Virus record (IMG/VR): IMGVR_UViG_3300034161_000018
Coordinates: 192,001 to 256,000 of that record
Length of the DNA stretch: 64,000 nt
Direction: 5' to 3' (one strand)
Origin: a virus
Taxonomy: Duplodnaviria > Caudoviricetes
Position numbers and translations under genes: made by a program. The notes below the pieces were generated by a model. It was not told the origin of the DNA. It saw only the letters and a program-made list of their open reading frames with translations, and made no database searches. This document shows, piece by piece, positions 467 through 10,453 of the stretch. How positions within the stretch are numbered: the first letter of the stretch is position 1; the number at the start of each line of letters is the position of its first letter.

Positions 467-1021
467 ATGACGGTAGACATTGAGTTGCCAGCGGAAAAGC
501 CCAAACCTATTTACCGTGACGGCATCAACTATCACGAAGCTGATGTGATTGCGGATAACGTTTTTGAAGTACCGGACGCGGAACTGTTGGCCTTCAACGA
601 TCAGACGATTGACAAGGCCGAAGCGTTCAAACAAATCATGTATTCCAGCGCCGCAACATTGAGCGCAATGGACACCGCTTCTGATTACGTTGGTGCAGCG
701 CTCAATGATGGCCTCGATTTAGGACTCGATATGGATGATCGCCCGTTTGCGGCTTTCGTCCATTTTTCACGTCTGGAGATTTTATCGCAAGCCGTCGAGC
801 TTTTAAAAATCAGCGACAAACAAAAACGTTTGCTGCTGGGGTATCTGACCAAAGCAATGTCGGACAAAGCGGTCGAAGCAATGACTGCAATGGACAATGG
901 CGAGAAAGCTAGACGTATGCTGCAAGCGCAGATGCACGCGGTTGTAAAACCTCAATCACGACAGACCGAGGAAATTGATCTTTACGACAAGAAACTCGGC
1001 CACAAGAGGGCGCGTCTGTGA
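467..1021 (+). CDS. Hypothetical helical protein, candidate small terminase subunit by position
   Basis: Part of track ORF 176..1021. The first 97 codons overlap the helicase tail and a terminator, so ATG 467 (MTVDIELP) is the likely start. Its stop overlaps the TerL start (GTGA). Function is inferred from position only. Confidence 0.45.
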   Translation: MTVDIELPAEKPKPIYRDGINYHEADVIADNVFEVPDAELLAFNDQTIDKAEAFKQIMYSSAATLSAMDTASDYVGAALNDGLDLGLDMDDRPFAAFVHFSRLEILSQAVELLKISDKQKRLLLGYLTKAMSDKAVEAMTAMDNGEKARRMLQAQMHAVVKPQSRQTEEIDLYDKKLGHKRARL

Positions 1022-3939
1022 AGCTACGAGAAAAGAGCAAAAAGAAAACAAGCTCAAACATTATTGTTCCGAGCACGGAAATCATCACGCCGGACAACCC
1101 GTTCGACTATTTGCAAACGTTGAAGAAAGGCGGATTGAAATCTACGCACGGTGAAGACTTTGACCCGGCAGCGTTGGCATCCAGTCGAACGGTAATCGGT
1201 GCGGGCAACTATGACGATCAGGAAATCGACATTGCCCGACAGATTCGCGAAACGGTAGATTCCAAAATCATCGTCCCAAAGGATATGAAAATCGACGATG
1301 GGGATTTGCCCTGCGCTGCAAACTTTTACGAATGGGTTACAGAAGACCGATTCGGGGCCGTCGATGAAGAACGCCCATTCCTTGAACAGTTGATTTGGGG
1401 AATCGTAACGTTCAACGACGCATGCCCGCGCTGCTCCGATAACGAATGGTTGTATCACGATCACAAGGTCGATGACACGTACCGGAAGTTTGAAAGAAAA
1501 GTTGCACTGATGCACCACGGCGTTTGCCCGCATTGCAAAATGGGCCGTTCGGAATTGGTCACGTCCGGGCAAATGAAATTCATCAACGAACTCGCGGTGA
1601 ACGCGGGCCAGCGTTGTGTGATTGGAACCACGCCGGTTCTGACAGCCGAAGGTGTGTTGCGTATTTCGGAATGTTTACCGGATGCGCCGTATTACTTCAC
1701 CGATTTTGAAATGGATGTGCATAACGGTAATGAGTTGGAAACTACTTCCGATTTCTACCGCGCCAAACCAGAACTCATTATCCGCGTGAAACTTTCCAAC
1801 GGTGTTTCGATTGCGGGCACCGCTGACCATCCAATCCTTTGTGGCGAAACGTTTATCACATTGGGCGAGATTGCGATGGGCCAAGAAGTCGGAGTCGCAT
1901 ACGGCCAGCGCTGTTTCGGTTCCGGTGTTCTCGATTACGCTTTCCAAGTTGGCGCCCGGTTCAACGCGCCAGAAGTCAGCAAGACAATTCGTACCGCAAA
2001 TGTTTGGATGGTGCGGGATTTCTTGCGTGGCATGTTTCAGTCGAAGGAACGCGCTTTCCTTTCGATGTTGGCAATCTCAGACGTAAGCGCCCTGCTCTTT
2101 AACCTCGGCATTTATCATAGCATTGACGGCCCGGCAATTATTTTGACGGATGACGGCTTTGCCTTTTTACATGGCGACGGCAACGATCTTCCTTCCGGCA
2201 CCGTAATGGAAAAAGTTGTAGCCATTACGATGGAAGCCGAACAGGATACCTTCGATTTCACCTTGCCCCAAACTCACCAGTTTGTAACAGGCGGAATCAT
2301 CAGTCACAACTCTGGCAAATCTCACACAATCGGCGGATACCTTTACCCGTATCTGACTCACCGAATGTTGAAAATGCAAAAGCCCGCGCAGTTCTATCGC
2401 TTGGCGCGGACAACCGTTTTGCATGCCACGTTTGTTGCACTCACCTATGCGCAAGCCAAAGATACTTTGTGGACACCGTTTTACGGCGCGATCCTTTCGA
2501 GCCAATGGTTCCAGCAATATCACAGCATGCTCAAATTCTACGAAAACAAATACGGCGAATCGCTGCTGAAACTCAACGACACGTTCGTTGTTTACAAGCC
2601 GCGTGGCCTCATGGTTTATCCGGCTGGCCCGGACAAACGGGTTCTCCGTGGTCGTACACGATTCGGCGCCTCAATCGACGAAATCGCATACTTCGACAGC
2701 CAGAAAGATTCCACCAAAGTAAAAATCAACGCCCACGAAGTTTACGACGCAATGACGAACAGCCTGTATACCTTGCGGGCAGCGGCAGAACGTTTGATTA
2801 ACAACGGCGCCGACGACGTGTTCCCCGGTTACTCGATGAACGTAACGTCGCCGGTTGCGCGCAACGACATGATTCACACATTGTTGAATCGCGCAAAAGA
2901 TTCGCAATCCATGTATGGCATTCACCGGCCAACATGGGAAGTAAACCCGGACTTCCCGCGCAACTCCCGTTTGATTACGGAAGCGTATCGGAAAGACCCG
3001 GACTCGGCTGAGAAAAACTTTGGCGCCAACCCGCCACTGATTGCAAACCCGTTTATCTCAAACCACGATTTCATCACCGGCGCAGAAGACCGCGACCGGA
3101 AGTCTGTTGTGAAAATCGAAATCGTCATGAAGACTTCCCGTAAACAGGGCCAGTCGTTTATGTACGGTCAGGTGAAGAAAGTCAAAAAGTCTGCGTATGC
3201 GACAATGATGGCACTCGACGCCGGTTTGACAGACAACAGTTTTGCGATGGCTGGTGGCCGACCAGACGGGCTTAATTTAAAAGTAGACTTCGCAACCGAG
3301 ATTATTCCGCAGAACGGTTTCAAGATTAACCACAGTTTGGTTTACTCCGACTTGATCTTGCCAGTAATGGAAGCGCGTAATTGCAAAATCCTACTGGCCG
3401 ACCGCTGGAACTCGATCAAACTTCTGGACGACGCAAAGCTCGATATGGGCGATCCGGAAGACGATGAAGATACTTTCATTGCGAAACAATACAGCCTCAA
3501 GTATCGGGACATGGTTAGCGTGCGGACTTGCCTTGAACAAGGTATTATCCGTTTGCCAAAATCCGAAATCAAAGTCAAATCCTTGCTGGAAGTGCTTGAC
3601 TCGGAATACCGTGACTTCTACGACGGCAAACCAATTGCGCATTTGTTTAAGCAACTGTACACCATTAAAGACTTGGAAAAATCGGTCGGCAAAGGTGACG
3701 GTTACACGGACGATATTTGGCGCGCTGTTGCTTTGCTTCTTTGGGGTTTGATGGAAGAAGAATTCCAAGGCATTCTGCTTTCCGAACCTGTTCACTTTGA
3801 AAAAACCAAACCGGCTGCTCTCGGGTTCTCCCGTTTGTACTCGGGCGGTGGCGGCACAGTTGGATCAGGCCAAGGCGGCGGACAAGCAACTCTAATCAAC
3901 GGCGCACCACTCGGCGTAATGGCGCGCAACAAACGGTAA
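1018..3939 (+). CDS. terL: Large terminase subunit containing an intein
   Basis: Walker A GQR|SGKS is split by an intein. Also present: Walker B (ASIDEIAYF), coupling region (VTSP), RNase H-like nuclease motif (MALDAG) and C-terminal DDIWRA. It lies just upstream of the portal. Confidence 0.88.
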   Translation: MKLREKSKKKTSSNIIVPSTEIITPDNPFDYLQTLKKGGLKSTHGEDFDPAALASSRTVIGAGNYDDQEIDIARQIRETVDSKIIVPKDMKIDDGDLPCAANFYEWVTEDRFGAVDEERPFLEQLIWGIVTFNDACPRCSDNEWLYHDHKVDDTYRKFERKVALMHHGVCPHCKMGRSELVTSGQMKFINELAVNAGQRCVIGTTPVLTAEGVLRISECLPDAPYYFTDFEMDVHNGNELETTSDFYRAKPELIIRVKLSNGVSIAGTADHPILCGETFITLGEIAMGQEVGVAYGQRCFGSGVLDYAFQVGARFNAPEVSKTIRTANVWMVRDFLRGMFQSKERAFLSMLAISDVSALLFNLGIYHSIDGPAIILTDDGFAFLHGDGNDLPSGTVMEKVVAITMEAEQDTFDFTLPQTHQFVTGGIISHNSGKSHTIGGYLYPYLTHRMLKMQKPAQFYRLARTTVLHATFVALTYAQAKDTLWTPFYGAILSSQWFQQYHSMLKFYENKYGESLLKLNDTFVVYKPRGLMVYPAGPDKRVLRGRTRFGASIDEIAYFDSQKDSTKVKINAHEVYDAMTNSLYTLRAAAERLINNGADDVFPGYSMNVTSPVARNDMIHTLLNRAKDSQSMYGIHRPTWEVNPDFPRNSRLITEAYRKDPDSAEKNFGANPPLIANPFISNHDFITGAEDRDRKSVVKIEIVMKTSRKQGQSFMYGQVKKVKKSAYATMMALDAGLTDNSFAMAGGRPDGLNLKVDFATEIIPQNGFKINHSLVYSDLILPVMEARNCKILLADRWNSIKLLDDAKLDMGDPEDDEDTFIAKQYSLKYRDMVSVRTCLEQGIIRLPKSEIKVKSLLEVLDSEYRDFYDGKPIAHLFKQLYTIKDLEKSVGKGDGYTDDIWRAVALLLWGLMEEEFQGILLSEPVHFEKTKPAALGFSRLYSGGGGTVGSGQGGGQATLINGAPLGVMARNKR
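1615..2310 (+). mobile_element. Intein (232 aa) in the TerL Walker A motif, with a degenerate LAGLIDADG remnant
   Basis: Starts CVIGTTPVLT, has block B TADHP, ends GIISHN followed by Ser(+1). The central FLRGMF...LLFNLGI segment resembles decayed endonuclease blocks. Confidence 0.9.
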
Positions 3940-3945
3940 ACCAAA

Positions 3946-4212
3946 ATGAAAGTTACCCTTGCGCAAGTAGAAGAAAACATTGTTCGCGAAGAAATCTGGA
4001 TTGTTCCGGGCACCAAAGCGACAATCGTTGCGTTGATTTGCAAAAACGGTTACGTCGCTACTGGTTTCAATAACTGCGCTGACCCAGCCGAGCACGATGC
4101 TGAATACGGTTTGCAAGCCGCACGCGAAGAAGCAATGAGCGACGTGTGGAAGCAATTGGGTTATGAGCTTCGCACCAAATTGCTGGAGGCGAAAGATGGC
4201 GGTCAAAGTTGA
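3946..4212 (+). CDS. Phage Gp49/Sf6 gp66-family protein
   Basis: Pattern V.PGT..T...L..KNGY..TG...CADP...D...G...AR..A...VW...GY.L matches this family. Confidence 0.7.
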   Translation: MKVTLAQVEENIVREEIWIVPGTKATIVALICKNGYVATGFNNCADPAEHDAEYGLQAAREEAMSDVWKQLGYELRTKLLEAKDGGQS

Positions 4213-4876
4213 TTCCTATAAGTGGTTCAAGTACGCCGGTCGGCATCTGATTTTTCCAACCGGCCACCCCGATCATGAACTCAGTTTGTTTGATGGTGAA
4301 ATCTACGGCTACAAGAAGTTCAAAGACAAACATTATGTGATCGACAAATCCAATCCGGAGATTCGTTTTGAATTGAAGGAAAAGGATGCGTTGCGCATTT
4401 TGAAAATGTCGGCGGGCTGGTCGGGATTGGTGCGCAAGGTTCCCGTAAAAGGCGGCATTGGCGGGAAAGACAAACCGGCGCCAAGTACGCAAGATACGAA
4501 AAACCTACACTTCCTCGAAATCGACAGTAGCAACCTGAAAGAAGCGGTTTACGACAAAAAGGAAAAAACTCTTTACGTCGGATTCCACACTTCCCCGGCC
4601 AAGTGGGCGTACCTGAATGTGACGCCTCGCGAAGTGCGCGAACTGGAAGAATCACCGAGCCAAGGCCGGTATTTCATCTACAAGATTCGCGAAGTGAAAC
4701 CGCAACATCGCGTTCGCTCAATGCCTACGCAAGCTGCTCCGATTCCGGAAGTTGAACCCGTTGCAGAAGTGCCGCCAGTAGCCAAACCGAAGAAATCGCA
4801 GACCGCAAAACAAGCGGTTAAAGATTTGCCGAAACCTGCTGTGGCCCCGGAAACAAAACCGAAACGACGGCGCTGA
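4196..4876 (+). CDS. KTSC-domain protein with an N-terminal module shared with the SprT protein
   Basis: GGAGG RBS before ATG 4196. IDSSNLKEAVYD...LYVGF...Y.NV....L..SPSQGRYF..KIR is a KTSC pattern. Pro/Lys-rich tail. Confidence 0.72.
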   Translation: MAVKVDSYKWFKYAGRHLIFPTGHPDHELSLFDGEIYGYKKFKDKHYVIDKSNPEIRFELKEKDALRILKMSAGWSGLVRKVPVKGGIGGKDKPAPSTQDTKNLHFLEIDSSNLKEAVYDKKEKTLYVGFHTSPAKWAYLNVTPREVRELEESPSQGRYFIYKIREVKPQHRVRSMPTQAAPIPEVEPVAEVPPVAKPKKSQTAKQAVKDLPKPAVAPETKPKRRR

Positions 4877-4930: not shown

Positions 4931-6817
4931 ATGAAACTACGAAAACGCGGGGCTGGTGCTGCAATGCACACGGCAACTTCAACCGCCGCGCCGAAAACCC
5001 AAACCAATGCCGGTATCTTTACCGGTCGGCGTTTGGGGCCGGAACGTGACGAAATGGACGACAAAATGTCGGCGACGGCAGCGGTTGGCAATGGTATGAA
5101 AAACACCAGTGTCGCGCAGTTGCCAATCGAAATCGACATTGATCCACTGCTGAAAGATATTGTGTTCAGCGAAGACCTTGAACAGAAAAAACTGGTCATG
5201 CGTCTGTTTACCGACATTTACTACAACGACCCGACTGCCGGTTCGATTGTGGATATTAAGTCGAACCTGATGTTTTCCGAATTCAACCTCGGCGGCATTA
5301 TGGACAAAAAGGTCGCGCAGGCATTTGGCGAATCTTTGGAAAACCTAAACATCCGCAACCTGATGCCACACGCATTGGTTGACCACGATGTAAAAGGTGC
5401 ATTCGTTGGCTCGTTGCTGTACAACGAAAAGAAGAAAACGTTTGTCGATGTGATGCCACACGGTTACGAGAACTGCAAAGTTGATATGCTGCCGTTCTTC
5501 AACCAAGACCCGTTGATTACCGTCGCGTTTCCGGACGACGTGCGGGCGACAATGGGCGTGGACACTCCGCGACTGAAAGCATTGCGTGAGTATTTGGGCG
5601 CCGAAGTAATTGCACAAATCAGCAATGCCGCGCTGGAACTGGATGCGAAATCGACAATCTATTTGCCGCGTCAAGCATTCACAAACAGCACGGGCGTTTC
5701 GTATTACCGCCGCATTCTGCCGATGTATCTTTTGGAGAAAAACCTTTTCCGGGGAACGCTGGTTGAATCGGCCCGTCGCCAACGCGGTATTCTGCACCTG
5801 ACGCTTGACGGCGGCGGGGAATGGGAACCGACGGTTGCCGACTTTGAAATGATGACGCAACTTTTCCAAAATGCTGACGCCGATCCGTTGGGTGCAATCA
5901 TTGCAACCCGCTCAGGGATTAGCGCAGACGAACTTCGCCAAGGCGGCGATTTCTGGAAAGTGACCGACGTTTGGGATTCGACGCTTTCAATGAAACTGAA
6001 AGCACTCGGGATTTCCGAAGCGTTCTTGAGTGGTGACGCAACATTCTCCAACCAAGACACTTCTATGTCGTTCTTCATTGACGGCATTCGTGGTCAGCGT
6101 GATTTGTTTGTTCGCAAAATGCTGTACAACCGCATCTTCCCGTTGATTTCTGCGTTGAACGGTTTTGTAATCGGTCAAAACGGAAAGCTGACTCGACGCG
6201 GTAACATGCTGGACAAGATCGACCCGATGGGCAACATCGGCATTCTCAATGACGGTTCGCGTTTGCTGATTCCGTCTGTGCATTGGGAAAAAACTTTGAA
6301 GCCGGAAGGCGATCAGCAATACATGGATATGTTGCAAGCACTTACCGAAAAAGGTGTGCCTGTTCCAATTCGTGCAATGGCTGCCGCTGCTGGTTTCAAC
6401 ATCGAACGTCTGCTCGCCGATCAACAAGGCGACAAAGACCTGATGGAAGAATTGTCGAAGTACAACAAAGAAATCGCAGACATTAAAGCGAAGTACGGCC
6501 CTGCTGATGGTGGCGACGACGGTACTGCAATGGCTTCGGCTTTGGCAGGCGCACGCTATTTGCAAAACATTCAGAACGGTTCGCGCTCCGATGTATTGGC
6601 GCGCAATAACGGGAAAATGTTGGGCTTGGCATCGCGTGATTTCGGCGAAGACTTTGAAGTTGCTGGCATGACACACGACGGTAAACGCCGCTACCTGCAC
6701 GATCAGAAGAAAGGGCAGGAACGCGCAAACCGTAAAATCGTTAAGCAACTGCAATCTATTCGTTTGGCAAACAACACGCATTTGTCCCGAATGACCACTA
6801 CCCCGTTTAAAGGGTAA
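4931..6817 (+). CDS. Probable portal protein
   Basis: 628 aa, downstream of terL. The IYYNDPTAGSIVDI helix and the LKALGISEAFLSG.....S segment resemble portal proteins. Confidence 0.65.
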   Translation: MKLRKRGAGAAMHTATSTAAPKTQTNAGIFTGRRLGPERDEMDDKMSATAAVGNGMKNTSVAQLPIEIDIDPLLKDIVFSEDLEQKKLVMRLFTDIYYNDPTAGSIVDIKSNLMFSEFNLGGIMDKKVAQAFGESLENLNIRNLMPHALVDHDVKGAFVGSLLYNEKKKTFVDVMPHGYENCKVDMLPFFNQDPLITVAFPDDVRATMGVDTPRLKALREYLGAEVIAQISNAALELDAKSTIYLPRQAFTNSTGVSYYRRILPMYLLEKNLFRGTLVESARRQRGILHLTLDGGGEWEPTVADFEMMTQLFQNADADPLGAIIATRSGISADELRQGGDFWKVTDVWDSTLSMKLKALGISEAFLSGDATFSNQDTSMSFFIDGIRGQRDLFVRKMLYNRIFPLISALNGFVIGQNGKLTRRGNMLDKIDPMGNIGILNDGSRLLIPSVHWEKTLKPEGDQQYMDMLQALTEKGVPVPIRAMAAAAGFNIERLLADQQGDKDLMEELSKYNKEIADIKAKYGPADGGDDGTAMASALAGARYLQNIQNGSRSDVLARNNGKMLGLASRDFGEDFEVAGMTHDGKRRYLHDQKKGQERANRKIVKQLQSIRLANNTHLSRMTTTPFKG

Positions 6818-6834
6818 ATGGTAAAACGGAAACG

Positions 6835-6879
6835 GCTACCCTAATTTATCCATACTGGTTGAGCTAGGGTAGCTTTTTT
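6835..6879 (+). terminator. Intrinsic terminator after the portal gene, with a TAATTTA motif at the stem-loop junction
   Basis: 9-bp stem GCTACCCTA/TAGGGTAGC, 21-nt loop, T6 tract. Confidence 0.7.
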
Positions 6880-7186
6880 CATCGGTAGAGCCTTTTCTGT
6901 GGTTGTCGCCAACTTGAAGTTGGGTGACTTCAACTTGCCGAAACGAATAGATTTACCTCGTCCATAAGTCTGTTCCCGCAGACGCTCGGCTGCCCTAGCT
7001 CGGGCCAGTACCGAATTCTCTTTTTCGCCGCCTTTTGGTCGGACTACTCCTGAGAAGTTAAATCCTAAATCGCGCTGCTAACGAATGTAATGTGCTAGGA
7101 AGCGAAAGCAGTCCGTTGTCACATTGCTTTCTGAGCGGCAAAACGTAACTGGAACTTTTCGCGCGACCTGAACCTAAAAGGCGGCA
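6880..7186 (+). ncRNA. Candidate structured ncRNA, two domains (6882-7014 and 7027-7185), family unknown
   Basis: No credible ORF. Nested helices 6882-6887/7009-7014, 7027-7036/7176-7185, 7037-7041/7164-7168 and 7052-7059/7153-7160, plus a possible loop-loop pairing. G-U pairs work on the + strand. Confidence 0.5.
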
Positions 7187-7194
7187 CCTATTTC

Positions 7195-7205
7195 AAAACT
7201 GTAAA
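7195..7205 (+). promoter_or_regulatory. AAAACTGTAAA putative phage promoter motif (non-structural class)
   Basis: The CTGTAAA core recurs at 7732, 9129, 12163 and on the minus strand at 24358-24368. Confidence 0.4.
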
Positions 7206-7236
7206 CATGCTGCATACACTCACCGAGGAATTTCAA

Positions 7237-7611
7237 GTGGAAAGCGTCGCAATCCCCGCCAGTCAATACGAAAAGAGTTTTGTTGTCGGCCTGTTTGAAG
7301 GGCTTGCAGTAGAAGTTGTTTTCTTGAAGCACGGCGATGTGCCCGTCTACATTAACGAATCCGGTGAATCGGCTGTTGCTGAAACGGAACTGGTGCAAAT
7401 CACGCTTCCAACTTCCGAAGGTTCCGAAAAGATGGCGCAGACTCTGCGTGACGCGTTGCTGAAATTGCGTTCGCCAGATTCCAACACTGTGTTCATTCGT
7501 TCGGCAGACTTTGCGGAAATCAACAACAAGCTGTTTACGTTCGCCCAACTCTGCGTCGGCTTTGTCCACGCCAAATCTGTAACGGAAAATGAATCTGCAA
7601 CCTCGCAATAA
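7237..7611 (+). CDS. Hypothetical protein
   Basis: Track ORF 7207..7611. A GAGGA RBS at 7225-7229 favours GTG 7237. Confidence 0.7.
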   Translation: MESVAIPASQYEKSFVVGLFEGLAVEVVFLKHGDVPVYINESGESAVAETELVQITLPTSEGSEKMAQTLRDALLKLRSPDSNTVFIRSADFAEINNKLFTFAQLCVGFVHAKSVTENESATSQ

Positions 7612-7633
7612 GTTTGACGACGCCGGTGACAAA

Positions 7634-7744
7634 ATGCTCAATGTTTTACTGAGCGCGCCGCCGTTATTTATGGAAGCGCTTTGCGCAATCATTCTGGTGG
7701 CCGGTTATTTCTTTTGGCCGGTTTCACAAATCTGTAAATACTGA
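7634..7744 (+). CDS. Possible 36-aa membrane peptide
   Basis: Read by hand: MLNVLLSAPPLFMEALCAIILVAGYFFWPVSQICKY*. One hydrophobic helix, weak GGTG RBS. Confidence 0.4.
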   Translation: MLNVLLSAPPLFMEALCAIILVAGYFFWPVSQICKY

Positions 7745-7748
7745 ATAT

Positions 7749-8148
7749 GGGAAGATGCTTTCCCGAAAGAGCACTAACGGGTGCTGTCCTTCATCCGTTA
7801 TTGCGCCTGCGCTTCGGTGCCGCTCGTTGTTCCTGAGAGTTGGTTCTAGTAGTCGCCATAGGTGATCCGATTAGCGCCCAGCGTGAAGTGGTGCTATAAA
7901 AGCTAAACAACTTCCTCCGCAACCAAAGCGTTACCTTTACCTCCCTGCGTTTCTTAATGTCCTAAGAAGCGTAGTAAAAAGGACGTGACTTTCGTTTGTG
8001 CGGTAAACCCACGGGAATAGGGCCGTGTGGTCGGCTGTTACATTTTTGAAATGATCGTGCGTGATTTGGTCGATTTGCCGGGCGTAAGCGGCTCATTGAA
8101 TTCGTTTCCCCAAGCCGCGTTCGGAATCCCCACCAGCGCGGCTTTTTT
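7749..8148 (+). ncRNA. Candidate ~400-nt structured ncRNA, family unknown
   Basis: Bounded by CTGTAAATA (7732-7740) and a terminator (8112-8148). Contains a C(UUCG)G hairpin (7809-7820), a 12-bp hairpin (7945-7974) whose loop can pair with 7981-7986, and a GUAA tetraloop hairpin near 8078-8093. Confidence 0.55.
8112..8148 (+). terminator. Intrinsic terminator
   Basis: Stem AAGCCGCG/CGCGGCTT followed by a T tract. Confidence 0.65.
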
Positions 8149-8175
8149 ATGTCTGAAAAATGGAGTGTCACTATT

Positions 8176-9117
8176 ATGGCCGGTTCTGAATCTGCTGCAA
8201 TTGAGCAACTCGACGAAAAAGAAATCTATCACAAGCAAGCGCGTGCAGGTAATCGCATCAAGCAAGTGATGGCAGCGCTGCATATGGAAATCAAAGGCTT
8301 GGATCAGCGGCGCACACAACTGGAACGCCAGTACGCGCAGCTTGAAGAAGCTTTGGAACTACAACAATTCTCGCCGCTGAATATCGGCAAGCGTGATTTG
8401 CCGGAACGCCCAAACAATCACCTCGGCCTGTGCAACGAAATTCCAATGCCCGGTGGCAGTGGTGACACGCCAATTGAATTCACTTTCAATGAAGCTGCGC
8501 GGGACGCATTCTTTGGCCCGCCGATGTTTGAAAGTGGCAAACACATTGACGACTGGCCTGCATCGACAATCGAAACTCCGGTCGAAGTAAAAGAACCTGA
8601 TTTCCTACCAGTGTTCCAGCTTGGCCCGCAAGACAAATTCTATCCACACACCATGCGCGGCGCAGATTGGAATGATGCACTGAATTTCGGTTGCAGCTTT
8701 CCGGAAGACACCGAAGGTTACTGGCGACACAATCCACAAAAGCCCGCTGCCGACGTTTACGAAAAACTTCCGTGGCCGGTTGCTCGCGACATTCCGGGTT
8801 ACAACCCGTTGGATTTCCACAAGCGTATGCGCGACGTTGAAAACCATTCAGCGACCGAGCGTAAAGTTTATCGCGGTATGACAATGCACCGCTGGCATGG
8901 TGGAACATTGGGCAATGCTGAATTCTGGCGTGGTTCATTCCGTTGGCCGGATTCGTATGGCAACTACATTTCCGAAGGCGTGCCACCGTCGCGACATTTC
9001 TTCCGTTTCATCATGACGGAACACGCGGAAATCTTCCCGAAACATCCAACGCTTTCCAATGAAGAATTCAACACCGTGTTCAATTGGTTGCCGAATATGA
9101 AACGAACGCCGGAATGA
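8176..9117 (+). CDS. Hypothetical protein: N-terminal coiled coil plus a C-terminal YRG...WP.....Y domain
   Basis: Track ORF 8149..9117. GGAG RBS at 8162 favours ATG 8176. Confidence 0.75.
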   Translation: MAGSESAAIEQLDEKEIYHKQARAGNRIKQVMAALHMEIKGLDQRRTQLERQYAQLEEALELQQFSPLNIGKRDLPERPNNHLGLCNEIPMPGGSGDTPIEFTFNEAARDAFFGPPMFESGKHIDDWPASTIETPVEVKEPDFLPVFQLGPQDKFYPHTMRGADWNDALNFGCSFPEDTEGYWRHNPQKPAADVYEKLPWPVARDIPGYNPLDFHKRMRDVENHSATERKVYRGMTMHRWHGGTLGNAEFWRGSFRWPDSYGNYISEGVPPSRHFFRFIMTEHAEIFPKHPTLSNEEFNTVFNWLPNMKRTPE

Positions 9118-9140
9118 TCCGGATTAAACTGTAAACTGAA

Positions 9141-9177
9141 ACCGTGCATTCCAACATTCCGGAGTGCGCGGTTTTTT
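9141..9177 (+). terminator. Intrinsic terminator
   Basis: 12-bp stem ACCGTGCATTCC/GGAGTGCGCGGT with G-U pairs, followed by a T tract. Confidence 0.65.
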
Positions 9178-9197
9178 CGTTTTTGGAGAATTTCATT

Positions 9198-9500
9198 ATG
9201 TGGGAACAAATGAGTGCGTCGCAGCAATTGCTCTACATTTGCAATGCTGCCGGAAACAAAAGCGACCGAATTGATATGGCAATGATTTGGCTGGTCGAAG
9301 AAAACATGCGCCAAGACGTGCGTGTGCGTTATACCGATTTGGTAAGCGCCGAAGCTTCGCTGGTCACGTATCGCGGTTTGTCTGACGAACAAATTCAATC
9401 GGTCGATACTTCGCAGCGCTACTATTTCAACATGCTGCACATGCCAGCCGAAGTTAAGGCCCGTTGTGCATGGCACGCGATTGAAAATGTTGATCCGTGA
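9198..9500 (+). CDS. Hypothetical protein
   Basis: GGAG RBS at 9185; in frame with track ORF 9144..9500. Confidence 0.65.
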   Translation: MWEQMSASQQLLYICNAAGNKSDRIDMAMIWLVEENMRQDVRVRYTDLVSAEASLVTYRGLSDEQIQSVDTSQRYYFNMLHMPAEVKARCAWHAIENVDP

Positions 9501-9681
9501 GTTTCACCGCCAGATAATCAACCTGTTGCAAGAAGGGCAAATCAGTCTGGCGGCAATCTACGCCCACGAAAACCAAACCATCGAACTCGACGTTGCGCTT
9601 CTGGAGAAATTCATTCCGGAACAAACGCTTTCTGAATTCAACGAACTTGTGAGTGAGCTAAATGGCGGGGCCACCCTTTAA
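9487..9681 (+). CDS. Hypothetical protein
   Basis: Short ORF overlapping both neighbours, consistent with an operon. Confidence 0.55.
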   Translation: MLIREFHRQIINLLQEGQISLAAIYAHENQTIELDVALLEKFIPEQTLSEFNELVSELNGGATL

Positions 9682-10453
9682 CGCAACAAAACATTTGCAG
9701 CGCCAAGGTGTTGATCCGAAAATCACATACGCCGCTGTGGTCGTAAACAACAAAGACAAATCGAAACGTGGCCGTGTGCAAGCGCGTGTCATTGGTTTCA
9801 TGGACGGCATCGAAGATCAATTTCTGCCGTGGGCGATTCCGTCGAATAACTTTGGCGCCAACAAAGCGGCTGGCGTTGATCGTTCCGGATGGTTTGACGT
9901 TCCGCCCGTTGGTTCCAAAATCGGTTTGCGTTTCCCACTCGGCGATCCGCACCGCCCGATTCAAGACAATTACCCGATTGACGATTTAGTCATGATGGAA
10001 GAAGCGAAAACGAATTATCCTGACCGGAAAGTTTTACGCTTCAACAACGGGTTCTTCATTATCGTTGACACCAAAACCAACGAATTGCTTTTCAACAATC
10101 CCGGCGATATGCACATTACGATTTTGGGCGACTGTTCCCAAACCGTGATCGGTGACAGCATGCAAATCGTTTCCGGTTCCAAAGGTGACATTCCGGCGTA
10201 TCTGCTAAACGCGCCGGACACCAAGGTAAACGAAATCGCTGCGAAGAAAGCGGGCAAAGTGAAATTCAAAGGACTCGGCAAAAGCGGTGGTGGCAACCTG
10301 CACCACGAAGTCACAGGGGATTACACTTTGAAAGTCGGCGGTAATCGCAAAGTTGTGATCGGCGGAAACGATGATGTTCAAGTCGGGCGTAACCGAACTG
10401 AAAAGATTGGTGCAACCCATTCGATCAAAGCTGCACGTTCGGAGACAAACTGA
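9662..10453 (+). CDS. Baseplate central spike (gpV/gp5/VgrG-like), no lysozyme domain
   Basis: OB-fold pattern D...RGRVQARV.G......LPWA...G..G.F.VP.VGS.I....GDP..P and C-terminal V.GN....V.GN beta-helix repeats. Confidence 0.82.
   Translation: MAGPPFNATKHLQRQGVDPKITYAAVVVNNKDKSKRGRVQARVIGFMDGIEDQFLPWAIPSNNFGANKAAGVDRSGWFDVPPVGSKIGLRFPLGDPHRPIQDNYPIDDLVMMEEAKTNYPDRKVLRFNNGFFIIVDTKTNELLFNNPGDMHITILGDCSQTVIGDSMQIVSGSKGDIPAYLLNAPDTKVNEIAAKKAGKVKFKGLGKSGGGNLHHEVTGDYTLKVGGNRKVVIGGNDDVQVGRNRTEKIGATHSIKAARSETN

Follow-up and report, generated by a model that had tools for sequence, protein, structure and literature searches.

A conserved two-domain structured RNA behind the portal gene in a clade of jumbo phages

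The viral DNA considered here, referred to throughout as the window, comprises bases 192001-256000 (64,000 nucleotides) of a 274,896-bp IMG/VR virus record with direct terminal repeats (IMGVR_UViG_3300034161_000018). The gap directly behind its portal gene contains a conserved, non-coding structured RNA of about 335 nucleotides (nt), which we call RNA-A (6855-7190, + strand) and which is built from two domains. The family is absent from Rfam 15, from the INPHARED phage records and from the literature searched. An earlier reading of the letters of this stretch, referred to below as the original prediction, had proposed a two-domain structured RNA on the + strand in this position, with a late-type promoter motif in front of it; covariation among homologs, the strand preference of a covariance model and a TAATTTA motif bear this out. 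We assign a probability of roughly 0.55 to the view that RNA-A is mostly a stand-alone late RNA that acts through its fold. Window coordinates are used unless stated otherwise.

Results

A strand-specific, non-coding fold

The portal gene (4931-6817) ends with its stop codon at 6817, and the next gene on the + strand, which encodes a 124-amino acid (aa) protein (7237-7611), starts at GTG 7237 with a GAGGA ribosome-binding site in front, so that the non-coding interval extends from 6818 to 7236. The ATG at 7207 at which the open reading frame (ORF) finder began this gene sits inside a promoter motif. We place the true start at 7237 because the homologous proteins are 122-127 aa long, the ATG is not conserved among them and the GAGGA is.

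Within this interval RNA-A has a predicted minimum free energy (MFE) of -125.8 kcal/mol on the + strand, compared with -108.4 kcal/mol (z = -3.01) on the - strand. The segment 6880-7186, to which the RNA had originally been assigned, already folds better than expected on the + strand (-106.4 kcal/mol, z = -3.96, unmatched by any of 100 dinucleotide shuffles; z = -2.93 for the - strand), and adding the helix P1 described below to the folded interval lowers the + strand z score to -5.25. A repeat scan returned two long complementarities that the original prediction had not listed, one of them between 6861-6873 and 6989-7001. With R1, a covariance model for domain 1, 9/9 homologs reach 76-179 bits on the + strand and none exceeds 16 bits on the - strand, and P1 contains four U-G pairs.

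Apart from one 30-codon ORF on the minus strand, the gap behind the portal gene holds no ORF of 30 aa or more. Across the homologs, stops occur in every frame in most sequences, three-base periodicity of substitutions is absent and most indels shift the frame, which together rule out a small protein-coding gene. RNA-A is single-copy: neither nhmmer nor the domain-1 covariance model found a paralog in the phage genome. Covariance-model searches against Rfam returned no match at the gathering score over the whole window and none at E≤10 on 6700-7350 that would identify a family, pRNA included. The sole weak match in the RNA-A region is to an animal microRNA model (E = 2.8), and RNA-A in eight homolog loci gave no match at E≤1. 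ARAGORN reported no tRNA or tmRNA gene in 6000-9500, nor was there an Rfam match to either.

Homologs and compensatory changes

We assembled ten distinct homologous gaps, all metagenomic, from Logan, ENA and IMG/VR contigs with a portal identity of at least 68%. They derive from an IMG/VR portal search (L004), from contigs encoding homologs of the 124-aa protein (L108-L118) and from contigs encoding close portal homologs (L132-L137). A blastn search of the gap against 50,697 phage records gave no match. A scan of viral contigs for a 14-mer of P1 gave 83 matches, which beyond the known relative all look like chance, their contexts being uninspected. A scan of viral and metagenome contigs for a domain-2 pattern gave one genuine match, the known relative; chance explains the 12 remaining loci (10 distinct sequences), several of them apparently in a bacterial sigma-factor gene. 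RNA-A is more conserved than the gene that follows it: identity to the window is 70-89% for RNA-A, 58-78% for the 124-aa gene and 79-93% for the last 600 nt of the portal gene.

The structure was derived as an RNAalifold consensus on MAFFT alignments, together with a separate MFE fold for each homolog, and each homolog folds independently into the topology of the consensus. Pairing holds in 96.0% of cells in domain 1 and in 93.9% in domain 2. Changes on both sides are seen at 10 of the 34 pairs of domain 1, where shuffled controls average 4.6, with one of 500 reaching this count, and slid controls give 1-4. For domain 2 the count is 10 of its 30 pairs; none of 500 shuffles attains it (mean 4.2), and slid controls yield 0-2. 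Given the shared ancestry of the sequences, counts of pairs and of pair types are safer measures of covariation than counts of cells.

Domain 1

Domain 1 (6855-7008) is closed by P1, a helix of about 20 bp (6855-6874/6988-7008), both strands of which hardly vary in sequence. A 5' internal loop that does vary separates P1 from P2 (GAGC/GCUC, 6888-6891/6984-6987), and the stem continues into P3 (TCTGTGG/CCGCAGA, 6896-6902/6976-6982). P3 forms a three-way junction with P4 (6906-6921/6926-6941), whose apical loop always contains GGGUG, and P5 (6945-6955/6965-6975). Among the homologs, an A-U pair in P2 is replaced by G-C, and P3 shows both U-A to C-G and G-C to A-U replacements. GAAGU/ACUUC in one form of P4 becomes GGAAU/AUUCC in L004; in L135 the P4 stem is wholly rewritten as 14 bp with the loop retained.

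We considered several partners for the GGGUG loop and rejected each of them. A pseudoknot with the invariant GGCACC behind domain 2 was set aside because GGCACC fits the -35-like part of the next promoter and is missing in L135. Pairings with the P5 loop or with the domain-2 loop CCUAA are lost in relatives; by eye, the UACCU complement in the P5 loop is gone in L004, L116 and L132. Pairing with UCACC just 5' of the next gene's ribosome-binding site can be drawn in several homologs, but A/C-rich leaders are common, and L135 and L136 retain the P4 loop without the 124-aa gene that follows UCACC. Across the different RNAs that occupy this position in related phages, enrichment of YGGGUG is weak and lies mostly outside loops.

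Domain 2 and the 3' end

A U-rich linker (7009-7026), which varies in length and sequence in the alignments, leads into domain 2 (7027-7185), a single rod of about 160 nt in the consensus and in nine MFE folds. From its base the rod consists of S1 (7027-7042/7168-7185, 16 bp with bulges), S2 (7051-7059/7153-7161, 9 bp), S3 (7074-7079/7134-7139) and S4 (7083-7094/7120-7131), and its apical part (7095-7119) forms a small hairpin. A C-G pair in S1 is U-A in L111 and L116, and L116 has gained a further pair by insertion on both strands; in L112, S2 has lost one pair on both strands. S4 occurs as AUGUG/CACAU, GUGUG/CACAC, GAGUG/CACUU and GAACG/CGUUU, with pairing kept between subtypes. The internal-loop strands 7060-7073 and 7140-7152, 12-14 nt on each side, are nearly invariant and are the most conserved sequence in RNA-A, and invariant UCC/GGA and CG/CG pairs are predicted within the loop. 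Its 3' strand, AAAACGUAACUGG, equals the promoter word AAAACTGTAAAC save for two one-base gaps.

Behind the closing stem lies a U-rich tail (7186-7195, + strand) that may be a weak terminator and may mark the 3' end of RNA-A. In the homologs the stem is followed by a spacer of 3-4 nt and then TATTTC, TTTTTC or TTTTC. L136 has kept domain 1 and has an unrelated domain in place of domain 2, with a GC-rich closing stem directly followed by T6. Three motifs noted by eye led nowhere: a boxA-like CUCUUU in the linker is not conserved; CUGAGA in domain 2, as a hammerhead core, has the wrong sixth base and is lost in L112; and no conserved GGA-loop pattern of the CsrA-sponge type was seen in RNA-A.

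All the pairings drawn in the original prediction are present in the window at the coordinates given there, and comparison with relatives sorts them. Three of the nine helices are conserved (GCCGCCTTTT/AAAAGGCGGC, GAGAAGTT/AACTTTTC and AATGTG/CACATT) and six are not kept. The first two, both in domain 2, show compensatory or coordinated changes. AATGTG and CACATT, which had been read as kissing loops, do pair, as part of the nested helix S4 in one long rod that needs no kissing interaction. TCGGTA/TACCGA, proposed to close domain 1, is lost in relatives; the 20-bp P1 closes the domain instead, which moves the predicted start of the RNA by about 25 nt in the 5' direction from 6880. The conserved helices P2, P3, P4 and P5 take the place of GCCGA/TCGGC and GTCTG/CAGAC, while GGTCG/CGACC, TCCTA/TAGGA and GAAAGC/GCTTTC are not conserved. 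One of two mutually exclusive hairpins drawn at 6905-6933 corresponds to P4; the other, CAACTT/AAGTTG, is an MFE alternative in two relatives.

Transcription signals

In front of RNA-A stands TAATTTA (6842-6848, + strand), a late-promoter-like motif of the -10-only type with a predicted start near 6853-6856. TAATTTATC is invariant in 9/9 homologs with domain 1, and P1 begins 6-9 nt behind it (6 nt in the window), which leads us to place the predicted 5' end of RNA-A at the base of P1. TAATTTA occurs 13 times in the genome; nine copies are intergenic, almost all of them 20-45 nt 5' of a start codon on the strand of the gene, and copies in the window stand before the operons of a baseplate wedge protein, a tail-fibre-like protein and two tail-sheath proteins. 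Because one copy has a ribosome-binding site 6 nt after it, any start from this motif would lie within a few bases of it. TAATTTA is most likely a late-type phage promoter that starts RNA-A.

The motif lies on the loop side of a hairpin (6834-6874; -18.7 kcal/mol) which, with the T6 behind it (6834-6880, + strand), is a candidate terminator for portal transcripts. The 3' arm of this hairpin (6861-6874) doubles as the 5' strand of P1, and the 3' strand of P1 (6987-7000) nearly repeats the sequence of the hairpin's 5' arm. Just 4/9 (the window, L111, L112 and L132) have a strong terminator form with a T-run; it is weak or lacks the T-run in L004, L137, L116, L135 and L136, whereas P1 is present in 9/9. 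We therefore reject the notion that RNA-A is a plain terminator or 3' untranslated region of the portal gene, since hairpin and T-run occur in 4/9 and a conserved, covarying 335 nt follow them.

A promoter-like site for the next gene, made up of GGCACC, 7 nt and AAACTGTAAAC (7183-7206, + strand), overlaps the 3' end of RNA-A and lies outside the fold; it is conserved in eight homologs. The genome holds 38 copies of CTGTAAA[TC], most of them as the wider AAACTGTAAAC, on strands that track gene direction and 25-45 nt 5' of start codons, and several have GGCRCC 6-7 nt upstream in the manner of a -35 element. Copies of the AAACTGTAAAC type are found in the window at 7196, 7732 and 9129, and the Lu11 annotation labels the equivalent motif a putative middle/late promoter. 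We regard AAACTGTAAAC/CTGTAAA[TC] as a further class of promoter-like words, separate from TAATTTA, which stands in front of the virion operons.

Two further sites carry motifs of this class. Outside the window, at genome positions 165450-165800, four AAACTGTAAAC copies on the + strand lie in about 300 nt that are apparently free of ORFs; this cluster could represent further small RNA genes or a regulatory hub. Within the window, at 9126-9200, 2 nt separate AAACTGTAAAC from a strong terminator hairpin (9138-9175) with a T-run, behind which come a ribosome-binding site and ATG 9199 of a small gene (MWE...). Lu11/HRDY3-like phages have this promoter-then-terminator cassette in front of their homologous gene as well, in some cases enclosing an RNA and in others not. 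Genes behind the 9138-9175 terminator would need read-through, or a start inside the stem, in a layout that resembles lambda PR'-tR'.

The same slot in related clades

Judged by portal protein, the Pseudomonas jumbo phages PaBG (65% identity), Lu11 and HRDY3 (about 57%) are the closest relatives in culture; their group uses the host RNA polymerase with phage sigma factors (PMC7412058). In PaBG and two metagenomic relatives, the region behind the portal gene contains TAATTT, a 110-nt hairpin, a canonical terminator, AAACTGTAAA and the next gene; the closing stem of the hairpin is 15-16 bp long and differs in sequence in each phage. In Lu11, HRDY3 and many IMG/VR relatives, CTGTAAATA is followed by a rod of 150-200 nt with a covarying closing stem and a small conserved hairpin, then by a terminator and the next gene, and the genes behind this RNA and terminator also lack a promoter motif. 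L013-L015 and L018 have the promoter-terminator cassette only, without an RNA, and in L009, L023 and L140 the portal gene is followed by neither gap nor RNA.

These elements share with RNA-A a slot between the portal and baseplate-hub genes, a promoter motif in front, a long covarying closing stem and a non-coding stretch of 110-250 nt. They differ in being single rods of 110-200 nt with canonical terminators, whereas RNA-A, at about 335 nt, comprises two domains and lacks a clean terminator. Neither nhmmer nor the domain-1 covariance model linked RNA-A to the PaBG-, Lu11- or HRDY3-type loci. Thus, as far as sequence comparison can tell, the slot behind the portal gene is conserved and its occupant is not recognisably so. 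In the GenBank records the corresponding gaps of PaBG (L001, 4753-4963), Lu11 (L002, 4846-5110) and HRDY3 (L003, 4951-5203) are unannotated save for the promoter feature of Lu11; they hold strongly folded elements bounded by promoter and terminator, with closing stems that covary among relatives.

A second structured RNA downstream

Behind the 124-aa gene lies a second structured, ORF-free RNA on the + strand, RNA-B (7745-8147), preceded by a separate CTGTAAATA motif (7732-7740) and closed by a terminator (8115-8147). RNA-A and RNA-B occur together in eight of the nine phages for which the region 3' of RNA-A was recovered. In L135, RNA-A directly abuts the RNA-B homolog, without gene or promoter motif between them and with one common terminator; the unit is 750 nt long and ORF-free from TAATTTA to a strong terminator, behind which come a promoter motif and the next gene. 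In L135, transcription must pass the end of domain 2 into RNA-B. The two RNAs may form one transcription unit or work jointly. A nine-base duplex between the 3' end of RNA-A and RNA-B (GGUGCCGCU) was rejected, being within background and without covariation.

L135 also carries an extra ORF of 73 aa between the portal gene and TAATTTA (3378-3599 of that locus) and lacks the 124-aa gene. This insertion and loss indicate that gene content around RNA-A is fluid while RNA-A itself is kept. In the window, a 51-codon ORF (7589-7744) with a hydrophobic C-terminal stretch overlaps the end of the 124-aa gene and terminates exactly at the CTGTAAATA motif of RNA-B.

Discussion

A proposed stand-alone late RNA

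We propose that transcripts initiated from TAATTTA, which lies in the loop of the portal terminator hairpin, would start at about 6855. Transcripts of the portal gene would form the terminator, while those starting at about 6855 would lack the 5' arm of the hairpin, leaving its 3' arm free to form P1. RNA-A would then end inefficiently at the closing stem of domain 2 and the U-tract behind it, or run on downstream, and would act in trans via its fold, probably together with RNA-B. The separate AAACTGTAAAC motif of the next gene, present behind RNA-A in eight homologs, supports a stand-alone unit, as do the stem and T6 that end the RNA in L136, the ORF-free 750-nt unit of L135 and the arrangement in the PaBG clade, where TAATTT stands before the RNA and a canonical terminator and a promoter lie behind it. 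As to what the fold does, our guess is that it serves as a scaffold or decoy for protein; we favour this because two invariant features, the GGGUG loop and the strands of the internal loop in domain 2, have the appearance of surfaces for recognition. We found no complementarity above background between RNA-A and downstream leaders or terminators.

Several points weigh against this proposal. The promoter, both ends and the timing of RNA-A are read from motif logic alone, and the scaffold or decoy mechanism is, as noted, a guess. The counts of paired cells are inflated by inheritance, coming as they do from about ten sequences in one narrow clade. In addition, a U-tract 3-4 nt away from the closing stem, as found in the window clade, is a poor intrinsic terminator, so that much of RNA-A may be the 5' part of a longer late mRNA.

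Alternative explanations

This last point leads to the alternative that we take most seriously, although we consider it unlikely on balance: that RNA-A is a cis-acting leader of the late operon. Here the fold would be the 5' part of TAATTTA transcripts and would act on its own transcript or polymerase: it might promote read-through of the terminators at 8115-8147 and 9138-9175 in the way of HK022 put or Bacillus EAR RNAs, protect the 5' end of the mRNA or control translation of the next gene. If TAATTTA is a promoter, the layout, with a promoter 5' and terminators 3', would fit that of put or EAR, and also recalls the lambda PR'-tR' ("6S") late leader, in which a phage promoter is followed by a short structured or terminated transcript 5' of late genes and terminators. 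The window clade has no good terminator between RNA-A and the 124-aa gene; two intrinsic terminators do stand between RNA-A and the baseplate-hub gene; the next gene in L136 has only a ribosome-binding site behind the RNA and no promoter motif; and the genes behind the analogous RNA and terminator of the Lu11/HRDY3 clade are likewise without one. Against this, eight homologs do have a separate promoter motif between RNA-A and the next gene, and in the PaBG clade the RNA is followed by a canonical terminator and then a promoter. The cassettes of L013-L015 and L018 contain no RNA, so read-through there needs no such element. Moreover, put is about 70 nt long and EAR about 120 nt, and a 335-nt RNA with two ornate domains is far above these sizes. 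The background-level complementarity to downstream terminators and leaders also speaks against a leader.

Domain 2 taken by itself invites comparison with 6S RNA (SsrS, RF00013 and related), in which a large central bubble separates the closing stem from the inner stem of a rod of about 180 nt. At about 160 nt, domain 2 is similar in size and has a comparable outline, with a closing stem, a conserved internal loop, an inner stem and a terminal loop; the loop strands are the part of RNA-A that has changed least, and the promoter likeness of AAAACGUAACUGG to AAAACTGTAAAC lies in one of them. Since the phage group relies on host polymerase and phage sigma factors (PMC7412058), one can imagine that domain 2 mimics an open promoter and late in infection sequesters polymerase carrying the AAACTGTAAAC-class sigma or host sigma-70, thereby enforcing the switch to TAATTTA. 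We think this quite improbable. No Rfam 6S model matches at E≤10; the invariant UCC/GGA and CG/CG pairs are predicted within the supposed bubble; and the promoter likeness is a single short motif picked out post hoc, after many looks. The 6S model also has no place for the extra 150 nt of domain 1, and L136 has an unrelated domain where domain 2 should be. A broader version, to which we give equally little credence, would make RNA-A and RNA-B the RNA part of a late phage ribonucleoprotein that reprograms transcription, with domain 2 trapping polymerase bound to a middle-class phage sigma as a viral 6S analogue, and with the PaBG- and Lu11-like slot RNAs as equivalents tuned to their own promoters.

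A DNA-level element, whether an origin, a recombination or protein site or a mobile remnant, or else chance terminator and promoter furniture, is very unlikely to be what the inverted repeats represent. Such an element could explain why the - strand also folds better than shuffled sequences (z = -3.0), and why both strands of P1 are almost invariant, one of them overlapping terminator and promoter. It would not explain a strand asymmetry of 17 kcal/mol, a score of 175 bits against at most 16, or the many U-G pairs, which become A-C on the other strand, and a duplex DNA site is not expected to show compensatory changes in helices as much as 150 nt apart. RNA-A is also single-copy, with no relatives elsewhere to suggest mobility, and the genome ends, with their direct terminal repeats, are far off.

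The role suggested in the original prediction, and offered there as a hypothesis only, that of a packaging or virion RNA in the manner of phi29 pRNA (RF00044), is the one to which we give least weight. Such an RNA would dock on the portal or procapsid and serve in DNA packaging or head assembly. RNA-A does sit right behind the terL, KTSC and portal genes and follows a late-type promoter motif, some folded RNA is kept in the slot by three related clades, and pRNA is likewise a phage-encoded structured RNA of two domains. Position is no argument, however, since the phi29 pRNA gene is not adjacent to the connector gene, and the KTSC gene is a neighbour only. The Rfam pRNA family is unmatched, RNA-A is about twice the size of pRNA and its promoter motif is of a late rather than early type. 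The phage has a complete 973-aa large terminase, a different type of motor that needs no RNA for packaging. Inspection by eye, no systematic search having been made, showed no conserved pair of complementary loops for ring formation, and the slot is without RNA in L009, L023 and L140.

Relation to other phage RNAs

RNA-A resembles the GOLLD and ROOL RNAs and the T4 species 1/2 RNAs in being phage-borne and ORF-free, with an elaborate fold and covariation. It differs from GOLLD and ROOL in size (335 nt as against about 580-800 nt), has no Rfam match, is not beside tRNA genes and has so far been seen in one narrow jumbo-phage clade only. With its two domains and compensatory changes, it is a well-supported addition to the large folded RNAs of jumbo phages, and the analogous slot RNAs of cultured PaBG and Lu11 make the function of such late RNAs testable at the bench. 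The layout is compact, with a putative late promoter inside the loop of an upstream terminator and one strand common to that terminator and to the first helix of RNA-A. Binding of RNA-A to polymerase, to a sigma factor or to a virion protein, if it occurs, would add a new level to gene control or assembly in phages; if RNA-A is no more than a leader, it is an unusually ornate one.

Neighbouring genes

Upstream of the portal gene, the large terminase gene (1018-3939) is followed by a gp49/66-like gene and then by the KTSC-domain gene (4163-4876). Behind the portal gene come the gap with RNA-A, the 124-aa gene, a second gap, a gene for a 313-aa protein, a small gene and the baseplate-hub gene (9662-10453). 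Pfam, PHROG and Atlas searches of the neighbouring proteins gave no informative family. The AlphaFold2 (AF2) model of the 124-aa protein indicates a confident fold (predicted local distance difference test score, pLDDT, 86.5), for which a fold search gave noise-level matches only, among them the lambda tail terminator (E about 0.04) and part of the HK97 capsid fold (Z about 6); the model of the 313-aa protein is unusable (pLDDT 40). The large terminase has a weak match to an intein-splicing domain at residues 243-431. The terminases of relatives are 969-1419 aa long, with intein and LAGLIDADG matches, and intein domains are also found in several portal homologs of about 780-1090 aa.

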